This document shows positions 46,838 through 47,893 of a stretch of 48,714 nucleotides of DNA, piece after piece. The position numbers and the translations under genes are program-made. A model generated the notes under the pieces. That model searched no databases and was not told where the DNA came from. It saw nothing but the letters and a program-made list of their open reading frames with translations. Every line of letters starts with the position of its first letter. The first letter of the stretch is position 1. Origin of the DNA: a virus; the IMG/VR virus record IMGVR_UViG_3300021255_001652, positions 1 to 48,714 of that record. One strand, written 5' to 3'.

Positions 46838-47893
46838 CAGTAATACGGCGTATGAAAGACTTTTCGCTTAATCAAGCGGGTAAAAATTTTTGGACAACTT
46901 TATATTATGTGATATGTACATTTTTCATATAATATGAAGGAGAAAGAATTTTTGCTAACGGGGAATCCTAAACCAAATGGCATGGAAATCCCGTGGGAAA
47001 CAAATATTAATTCATTCTCTTTCAATATCAACTAATGAAGGAGAATAAAAAATGATAGGAATTTATAAAATAGAAAATTTAAATGATGGTAAAATTTATA
47101 TTGGTCAATCTAATAATATTGAAAGACGTTTTTATGAACATATGACAAAAGGAACTACATCTCGCATTCCTTTGGATGTAGCAATAGAAAAGGAAGGTGC
47201 AGAATCTTTTAGTTATTAGATTGTTGAGTTATGTCCAATAGAACAATTAAATTAGAGAGAAACTTTTTGGATTAAGTTTTTTGGATCTAATATATATGGA
47301 TATAATAAAAATTAGGGCGGTATGTCAAATGTTATAGGAAGTAATAATCCTAAAGCAAAATTGACAGAAAAAGATGTGATTAGAATTAGACAAGCCTATG
47401 CTAATCATGAACGTCAAAAAGATGTATATAAAGAATTTGAAAATAAAATATCTTTTGGTTATTTTCAAAATCTTTGGCAAGGCAAATCTTGGTCACATAT
47501 TATGCCAGAAGTTTTTACAAAAGAAAATAAATAGTATTATATTTATCAAAACTCGCAAGGCAGTAATGGAGCCTCAGCTCAATTTACAGACGAAGAAGTT
47601 ATTCAACTTCGACATAGATATGTAAATGAAACTGCCAAAAAGATTTACGAAGATTATAAAGATCGAGTATCCTATCAAACATTTCAAGCAATGCTTTGGG
47701 GAAGAAGTTACTCAACACTTCCTATTTATAAAAAGAAAGAAAAGAAATGGATTAATATTTGAACCTGTATCGACTATTCCCTTTGCCTTATGGGCGGGGA
47801 AGTAGGGCTGTTATTGATACGCAGTTCGAAATGGTCTCCTCTCAATAGAGAGTAAAAGATAGTCAGTGCTCATGGAAACATGAGAATTACACG
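46838..47893 (+). mobile_element. probable group I intron (1056 nt) in the TOPRIM motif of gyrB, carrying a homing endonuclease ORF
   Basis: exon junction restores IIMSDADV|DGAHIKNLFYTF (canonical DADVDG.HI); 5' exon ends in T, intron ends in G; GACTA ... AAGATAGTC (P7 R/S-like elements); ctcatg-GAAA-catgag GNRA hairpin near the 3' end; GC-rich structured 3' segment. Confidence 0.6.
47052..47762 (+). CDS. intron-encoded GIY-YIG homing endonuclease, 236 aa, 4 in-frame TAG, TGA stop
   Basis: RBS AAGGAG; IYKIENLNDGKIYIGQSNNIERRFYEH ... IVELCP ... RETFWI (GIY-YIG) followed by two helix-turn-helix-like modules; TAGs at 47217, 47253, 47313, 47532 all in frame; the 3' end overlaps the intron core. 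Confidence 0.7.

Follow-up and report, generated by a model that had tools for sequence, protein, structure and literature searches.

Organization of the interrupted locus

The stretch of viral DNA considered here, positions 1 to 48,714 of the IMG/VR virus record IMGVR_UViG_3300021255_001652 (referred to in its full length of 48,714 nucleotides as the window), carries near its end a gene for the B subunit of a GyrB-like type II topoisomerase (45315..48302), which is interrupted between Val508 and Asp509 by a 1056-nt insert (46838..47893) containing an endonuclease gene of its own. A first-pass annotation, made from the letters alone, had read this insert as a probable group I intron, and the coordinates, the break in the open reading frame (ORF), the in-phase resumption and the bases at the ends of exon and insert are all as it had described them. 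The ORF that opens at 45315 extends to 46871, with ...IIIMSDADV followed by 10 unrelated sense codons and then TAA, and the host frame is picked up again at 47894 (c gat gga gca cat, which is (V)DGAHI). Since 1056 is 352 x 3, the phase of exon 1 is kept. The last base of exon 1 is U (46837), that of the insert G (47893). When 46837 is joined to 47894, a protein of 643 amino acids results, on which Pfam recognizes DNA_gyraseB (6e-30), Toprim (7e-13) and DNA_gyraseB_C (3e-17), with HATPase_c matching more weakly. The gene for the topoisomerase A subunit begins downstream, at 48486.

Table 1. Features of the interrupted topoisomerase B gene and of the predicted intron, in window coordinates.
Feature	Position	Strand	Remarks
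Exon 1, type IIA topoisomerase B subunit (GyrB-like)	45315..46837	+	ends ...IIIMSDADV, GT of Val508 codon; 0 in-frame TAG
Group I intron (predicted), 1056 nt, T4 td-like (IA2 type)	46838..47893	+	47893 is the terminal G (omega-G)
P1	46834..46851	+	exon ACGU + intron C (46834..46838) with G + internal guide GCGU (46847..46851)
P3, 5' strand	46857..46861	+	AGACU; partner 47833..47837
Hairpin A	46863..46880	+	UUCGCUU-AAUC-AAGCGGG; between P3 and J3/4; conserved
Hairpin B	46882..46953 (approximate)	+	variable, extended; between hairpin A and J3/4 (GCUAA); read from sequence alone
P4 around P5	46958..46994	+	P4 ACGGGG/UCCCGU, P5 UCC/GGA; near-identical to T4 td P4-P5
Shine-Dalgarno-sequestering hairpin	47014..47046	+	arms AUUCUCUUUCA / UGAAGGAGAAU
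GIY-YIG homing endonuclease (predicted), 236 codons	47052..47762	+	in P6 loop; four in-frame TAGs; TGA stop abuts P6'/P7
3' catalytic core	47772..47864	+	P7, P7.1, P7.2, P3 3' strand, P8, J8/7
P7	47772..47776 / 47860..47864	+	GACUA / UAGUC
P7.1	47778..47800	+	
P7.2	47805..47827	+	loop is the conserved 9-mer UAUUGAUAC
P3, 3' strand	47833..47837	+	comes after CGAAAU
P8	47839..47852	+	
J8/7	47853..47859	+	
P9 hairpin	47869..47884	+	GAAA loop; 94% paired, compensatory changes in all 6 pairs
Exon 2	47894..48302	+	DGAHIKNLF...PPLYK...KGLGEM...stop; 0 in-frame TAG

The position of the insertion follows from relatives that do not carry it. When viral contigs were scanned with the spliced protein, 80 loci were obtained (66-93% amino-acid identity; contigs are cited below by L number), and about 70 of these are uninterrupted at the site in question. 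The spliced junction of the window aligns to such uninterrupted relatives free of gaps (in L004, for example, at 95.8% nucleotide identity over 119 nt), and as such the insertion can be placed in the TOPRIM motif DADV|DGAHI, inside the codon for Val508 (GT|C). This is where the first-pass annotation had expected a comparison with intron-less homologues to place it.

Covariation and relation to the T4 td intron

The case that the insert is a group I intron draws chiefly on a family of related sequences. A 3'-flank pattern (CCTGTATCGACTAT...ATTGATACG) matches at least 119 viral contigs, which supply 110 distinct 3' halves; 109 of these were aligned with MAFFT (alignment A1), the helices read from the window were projected upon the alignment, and the pairs were counted. 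Standard pairs occupy 90.3% of cells. The covariation score is 0.583 as compared with 0.203 in shuffled alignments, none of 500 shuffles reaching the observed value, and sliding the 3' partner by 1-3 columns yields at most 0.204. P7.1 is paired in 100% of cases, with compensatory changes at all four of its pairs, P7.2 in about 99%, and nearly every pair of P7.1, P7.2 and P9 shows compensatory changes; the terminal G of the intron is present in nearly all rows. The P7-like elements (GACUA/UAGUC) and the GNRA-capped hairpin that had been noticed at the outset are likewise present, the latter with a GAAA loop.

Comparable evidence was obtained for the 5' half. The two strands of P3, which lie far apart in the intron, average 5.6 bp between cognate partners and 4.0 bp in non-cognate pairings, and within the subfamily of the window they vary in concert (AGACU/GGUCU, AAACU/GGUUU, ACACU/GGUGU). 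P4 is 100% paired, its sole variable (middle) pair being G-C in 42 sequences and A-U in 22 and never mismatched, while P5 is 92.6% paired and hairpin A is paired in 92.9% of cells with several pair types per position. For P6, a 3-bp GGG/CCU pairing is all that is established. At the 5' splice site, P1 contains the U·G pair U46837·G46848, as read from the window itself, and the guide changes along with the 5' exon at neighboring insertion sites (ACGU/GCGU in the window, CGUU/GACG in L179, UGGU/GCCA in L159).

A covariance model built from A1, designated R1, provides the link to an intron of proven activity. R1 matches the 3' core of the T4 td intron (E = 9e-8, 39.2 bits), following it through P7, P7.1, P7.2, P8 and P9 one helix after another and with no non-canonical pairs, and it also matches the second intron in L001, which is the one that Rfam itself detects. 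The window insert scores 125.6 bits; a search of the window with R1 returned no further copy, the next best match having E = 1.5. Given that R1 matches the td core and that P4-P5 is nearly identical to that of td, the intron is assigned to the td-like (IA2) type. Of the two subgroups that had been guessed, IA2 is thereby upheld, the match to the td core including P7.1 and P7.2, and IB is not. The combined evidence supports the identification of the insert as a group I intron of the T4 td (IA2) type, for which splicing is predicted.

Two peripheral features deserve mention. In nearly all family members the stem of hairpin A is conserved together with an AAUC loop, and hairpin B ranges from about 10 to about 70 nt in length. 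Furthermore, approximately one quarter of the family (A1 columns 66-95; e.g. L085, L088, L095 and L102) carries an extra ~30 nt with a conserved UUUUAGGAAACGAAG motif 3' of the P7.2 3' strand, which looks like an additional peripheral hairpin marking a subfamily.

The intron-encoded endonuclease and its ribosome-binding site

The ORF within the P6 loop was expected to be open only if TAG is a sense codon, and it contains exactly four in-frame TAGs (47217-19, 47253-55, 47313-15 and 47532-34, the first being codon 56) and neither TAA nor TGA, a circumstance with a chance of 6e-7 for 236 random codons of the same base composition. With TAG read as an amino acid, the translation matches Pfam GIY-YIG (PF01541) at 38.9 bits against a cut-off of 22.6 and falls in PHROG homing-endonuclease families, and in a sequence search of the PDB its N-terminal domain matches the I-TevI catalytic domain 1LN0 (E = 2e-9). 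All of the motifs needed for catalysis are preserved: GIY (residues 3-5), YIG (16-18), RR (25-26), RE (69-70) and GYN (83-85). These observations support the prediction of an intact GIY-YIG enzyme gene that would be readable only with TAG as sense.

Among 68 distinct endonuclease ORFs of the family, 31 carry in-frame TAGs (1-7 each, at differing positions) and are otherwise open. In homologues, the residue opposite a family TAG is mostly Q, E or K, and the four TAGs of the window align with E, with D/E/Q, with a variable column, and with Q.

The C-terminal half of the enzyme consists of a two-fold internal repeat, which had been described as a pair of helix-turn-helix (HTH) domains. While the GIY-YIG part of that description stands, the HTH part is unverified: Pfam at E <= 10 gave only a sub-threshold DUF5053 for the C-terminal half, the PDB sequence search left that half unmatched and found the N-terminal domain alone, and a single-sequence AlphaFold2 model of repeat 1, the only unit modelled, is all-helical with four helices at low confidence (pLDDT 64) and drew no match below E = 4 when compared to the PDB by Foldseek.

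Translation of the endonuclease appears to be guarded at a second level. Its Shine-Dalgarno (SD) sequence, GAAGGAG, lies 8 nt before the ATG and is paired within the hairpin at 47014..47046, which has a predicted folding energy (dG) of -11.3 kcal/mol and a z-score of -4.0, with 10 of the 11 nt in the SD window paired. Across 43 distinct family leaders the median z-score is -3.0 and the SD window is mostly paired in 77%, and the anti-SD arm varies jointly with the SD flank, in the manner of compensatory changes. There is precedent for such an arrangement in T4, in which a hairpin over the I-TevI SD forms only on early read-through transcripts, transcripts from the late promoter leave the ribosome-binding site free, and early translation is harmful (PMC2988022). 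The study 'Better late than early', in the form in which PMC2988022 cites it, reports that splicing is efficient only if translation of I-TevI is delayed. The endonuclease stop codon of the window directly abuts P6'/P7 (tgaACCUGUAUCGACUA), and hence a ribosome that finished the ORF would sit on the catalytic core.

TAG recoding in the window and its relatives

In the window, TAG is a sense codon in the tail and lysis genes and is absent from the replication genes. In-frame TAGs number 36 in an ORF of 2906 amino acids, 10 in one of 1604 amino acids, 7 in the endolysin gene (41974..43785) and 3 in a tail protein gene, as compared with none in the RNA ligase gene and none in either topoisomerase B exon. 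Their density in the intron endonuclease is 17 per 1000 codons, versus 12 per 1000 in the recoded late genes of the window. A related 135-kb viral contig, L064, encodes a tRNA with the anticodon CUA (3277..3352), about 650 nt upstream of its topoisomerase B gene; by its anticodon this is an amber suppressor, and ARAGORN labels it tRNA-Pyl.

Several genes of the window with in-frame TAGs call for comment. The ORF of 2906 amino acids (23976..32702, minus strand) looks like a tape-measure protein, judged by composition. A tyrosine integrase gene (10199..11236, minus strand; PHROG 1, 6e-58) contains one in-frame TAG, and because of this integrase the recoded phage may be temperate. Directly upstream of the topoisomerase B gene, and overlapping its start by 8 nt, is a free-standing GIY-YIG + NUMOD3 homing endonuclease gene (44558..45322, plus strand; Pfam NUMOD3 1e-22, PHROG 314 8e-44) with one in-frame TAG (44711..44713). 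The topoisomerase B gene is as such both flanked and invaded by recoded endonuclease genes, two in number. Between the B and A subunit genes, a small ORF (48295..48477, plus strand; MQNNRLIQMNQWGSYIYVGKYKKGIYKNWGDYAEDLSPQSIE-TAG-IMKKLYYFEENLEQL) is continuous only with TAG readthrough.

Distribution of the intron family

The same intron occurs at the same site in the independent contigs L061, L067, L068 and L082, and in a wider set there are 12 distinct copies at the insertion site of the window. The distribution of the intron among close relatives is patchy, which, together with the exon differences described next, is indirect evidence of cleavage of intron-less alleles and of homing. Alleles that contain the intron read GCN GAC GT|, and most of those that do not read GCT GAT GT (46830..46837 compared with L003, L004, L007, L010 and L015); the C at position -3 of the intron-containing alleles base pairs with the guide sequence of the intron. 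These silent exon differences beside the insertion site are consistent with the pairing needs of P1, with co-conversion, or with protection from the endonuclease.

Members of the family occupy four adjacent positions in the motif, namely DA|DVDG (L090, L160), DADV|DG (the group of the window), one nucleotide later (L179) and DG|AH (L089, L091, L114). A paralogous family intron is found in the same gene at KG|LGEM (in L077 and L080, ~5700..6745, and in others), and in L154 a single gene contains two introns of the family (5981..6121 and 6445..6576), about 460 nt apart.

Among phage isolates, a blastn search for distant matches shows that the 5' and 3' flanks of the window endonuclease gene recur in the Enterococcus phages VRE9_3 and EF1, on either side of a related gene. 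In these two phages (L001 ~2290..3300; L002 ~1225..2165) the family introns are unannotated, the exon fragments beside them stand in the deposited records as separate 'hypothetical proteins', and small spurious ORFs have been called across the ribozyme core. When the spliced protein was compared with phage isolates by tblastn, nothing exceeded about 35% identity.

Proposed mechanism and alternative explanations

We consider the insert to be a mobile td-type (IA2) group I intron in the TOPRIM DxDxDG motif, with early splicing, a late TAG-dependent endonuclease and homing, and assign this reading a probability of roughly 0.88. It is based on the observed anatomy of the locus, the covariation, the homology to td, the intact TAG-dependent ORF and the TAG recoding of the late genes, from which we infer self-splicing, homing, the timing of events and the amino acid inserted at TAG. 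Early in infection, the topoisomerase transcript would fold into P1 and P3-P9 with P7.1 and P7.2, and the intron would splice itself out with a guanosine cofactor, joining GU|C so as to restore Val508-Asp509 and a full-length subunit. Two locks would hold the endonuclease back during this period, the first being the hairpin that would hide its SD sequence and the second the four TAGs, which would halt ribosomes well short of the 3' ribozyme core. Late in infection, TAG would be read as an amino acid, probably Gln, by means of a phage suppressor tRNA, and the full enzyme of 236 amino acids would be made; it could then cut intron-less topoisomerase alleles of co-infecting relatives, the repair of which would copy the intron in.

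Several points weigh against this proposal. The family was gathered with a pattern derived from the window, and the window's own match to R1 follows from how that model was built. P7, which does not vary in the family and formed part of the pattern used for the search, supplies no covariation information. P8 is paired in only 56% of cells in the MAFFT register; our interpretation is that the length of this helix varies and that its register shifts accordingly in the alignment. Hairpins A and B, between P3 and J3/4, are outside the canonical td architecture. The tRNA scan of the 48.7-kb window found none, and so no suppressor tRNA lies within it. The first TAG of the window aligns not with Gln but with a Glu that 16 of 17 homologues share. 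Furthermore, splicing and timing are predictions from DNA sequence.

Last, the Rfam group I model RF00028 (Intron_gpI), the search with Infernal and Rfam that had been suggested as a check, does not match the window, either at the gathering score or at E <= 10, an outcome that had been named in advance as a refutation. However, the proven T4 td intron itself scores only 40.3 bits on this model, for which the gathering score is 50, an ORF-less member of the family (L094) scores 17.6 bits (E = 0.047), and the Enterococcus phage homologues of the intron are unmatched. Since these controls also fall below the threshold or are missed, the negative is uninformative for a td-like family; RF00028 is insensitive both to the intron family of the window and to T4 td.

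The best of the alternatives, improbable though we judge it, retains the intron and regards the endonuclease as a decaying pseudogene, its TAGs being true stops (derived from CAG or GAG) and no functional enzyme being made. Degenerate intron endonucleases are generally known to be common (see also PMC2988022), and both the displaced Glu and the want of a suppressor tRNA in the window would be in keeping with decay. Such decay would nonetheless have had to spare the GIY, YIG, Arg, Glu and Asn motifs and to interrupt the frame by TAG alone, for there is no TAA, TGA or frameshift in the 236 codons; moreover, the TAG density matches that of the recoded late genes, and nearly half of the family ORFs (the 31 of 68 noted above) show the same condition, with TAGs at different positions in frames that are otherwise open.

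Less probable again is a non-splicing insertion with a free-standing endonuclease, after the fashion of T4 39 / mobA / 60, in which two polypeptides would be made and the fragments would assemble after translation. T4-type phages do split this same TOPRIM domain into fragments that assemble, and an ATG (47880) is available ahead of the second fragment, but that ATG lies inside the P9 stem and has no SD sequence, and the locus lacks duplicated tails that extend the C-terminus or N-terminus in the manner of MobA. Nor would this alternative explain why the insert keeps every helix of the conserved ribozyme core, with its 125.6-bit score to the family model, along with the splice-site U and G, or has a length and boundaries that restore the frame exactly. 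An intein or an assembly artefact, to which we give practically no credence, would suit an endonuclease ORF that stands in the exon frame (47052 - 45315 = 579 x 3), but is refuted by TAA stops in the host frame (e.g. at 46869), by the lack of Hint motifs (the Pfam scan of the insert ORF matched GIY-YIG only) and by the recurrence of the arrangement in several independent contigs.

Returning to the mobile, late-acting intron, we would extend the proposal to the family as a whole, albeit tentatively and at somewhat worse than even odds. The family may represent an undescribed structural variant of IA2, without P2, with hairpins A and B between P3 and J3/4 (one with the AAUC loop) and with the UAUUGAUAC loop on P7.2, that has spread and diversified among the phages of gut and rumen, with a four-codon stretch of TOPRIM as its repeated target. 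In amber-recoded hosts, TAG would then constitute a code-dependent second lock, added to an ancestral hairpin over the ribosome-binding site, that keeps ribosomes off the ribozyme core until the code changes.

The locus is a clean and well-anchored example of how three phenomena, each already known, can come together at one site: introns that splice themselves out of essential phage genes, homing endonucleases, and the use of stop-codon recoding as a timer. Our reading predicts that the topoisomerase mRNA is spliced early and that the endonuclease appears only after amber suppression begins. There is also a practical consequence, in that a family of at least 119 viral contigs, together with Enterococcus phage isolates, has been missed by Rfam, and as a result host genes are wrongly annotated as fragments. 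The delayed-expression idea has already been published for the TGA-recoded Agate phages, and the window is a new example of it, not a new mechanism. What is most original here is the size of the family and the blindness of Rfam to it, the hairpins between P3 and P4, the double lock, and the coincidence of the insertion site with the bypass site of T4 gene 60.

Relation to known systems

A first system for comparison is the T4 td intron with I-TevI (group IA2), which has been demonstrated by experiment to be self-splicing and mobile, whereas the window intron is known from its sequence. The two share the order of the 3' core (P7, P7.1, AGUAGGG, P7.2, CGAAA, P3', P8, J8/7, P7', P9) and a near-identical P4-P5, which reads UAA(A)CGGGGAA...AAUCCCGUG and is represented in the window by GCUAACGGGGAA...AAUCCCGUG. 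In both, the ORF is in the P6 loop and ends where the 3' core starts, it encodes a GIY-YIG endonuclease (the N-terminal domain of the window enzyme matching I-TevI), and the SD sequence of that endonuclease is sequestered in a hairpin. They differ in the host gene, which is thymidylate synthase for td and topoisomerase B in the window, and in the periphery of the RNA, the window intron having no P2 but hairpins A and B between P3 and J3/4, and the conserved 9-mer UAUUGAUAC as its P7.2 loop. No similarity is detectable between the two-fold repeat at the C-terminus of the window enzyme and the zinc-finger/HTH region of I-TevI and, unlike I-TevI, the window endonuclease needs TAG suppression. As regards RF00028, what is held in common is the general group I core, as reflected in the weak match from the ORF-less family member.

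Group I introns have been reported in large numbers in other gut phages. In the TGA-recoded Agate phages, a self-splicing intron resides in a standard-code early gene, and in-frame stops in its homing endonuclease have been proposed to delay the enzyme until the late change of code (Borges et al., bioRxiv 10.1101/2021.08.26.457843). TGA is read there as Trp (code 4), whereas in the window it is TAG that is read, probably as Gln; furthermore, the window intron possesses an extra lock in the hairpin over its ribosome-binding site. The Agate paper contains no analysis of RNA structure, insertion site or family, in contrast to the present one.

A different solution to invasion of the same gene is offered by the MobA / gene 60 bypass element of T4-like phages, which operates by protein splitting and ribosome hopping and not by RNA splicing, and of which the T4 endonuclease is of the HNH type. 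That element nonetheless interrupts the same topoisomerase large subunit in the metal-binding motif of TOPRIM, and carries a homing endonuclease that is sometimes of the GIY-YIG type. The 50-nt bypass gap of T4 gene 60 directly follows ...MTDADHDG, two codons from the site DADV|DG of the window, which bears out the first-pass annotation in its description of the locus as a recurrent target for mobile elements. The T4 gene 60 bypass element and group I introns, the latter at several neighboring positions, both strike the TOPRIM DxDxDG codons, which form a shared hotspot.

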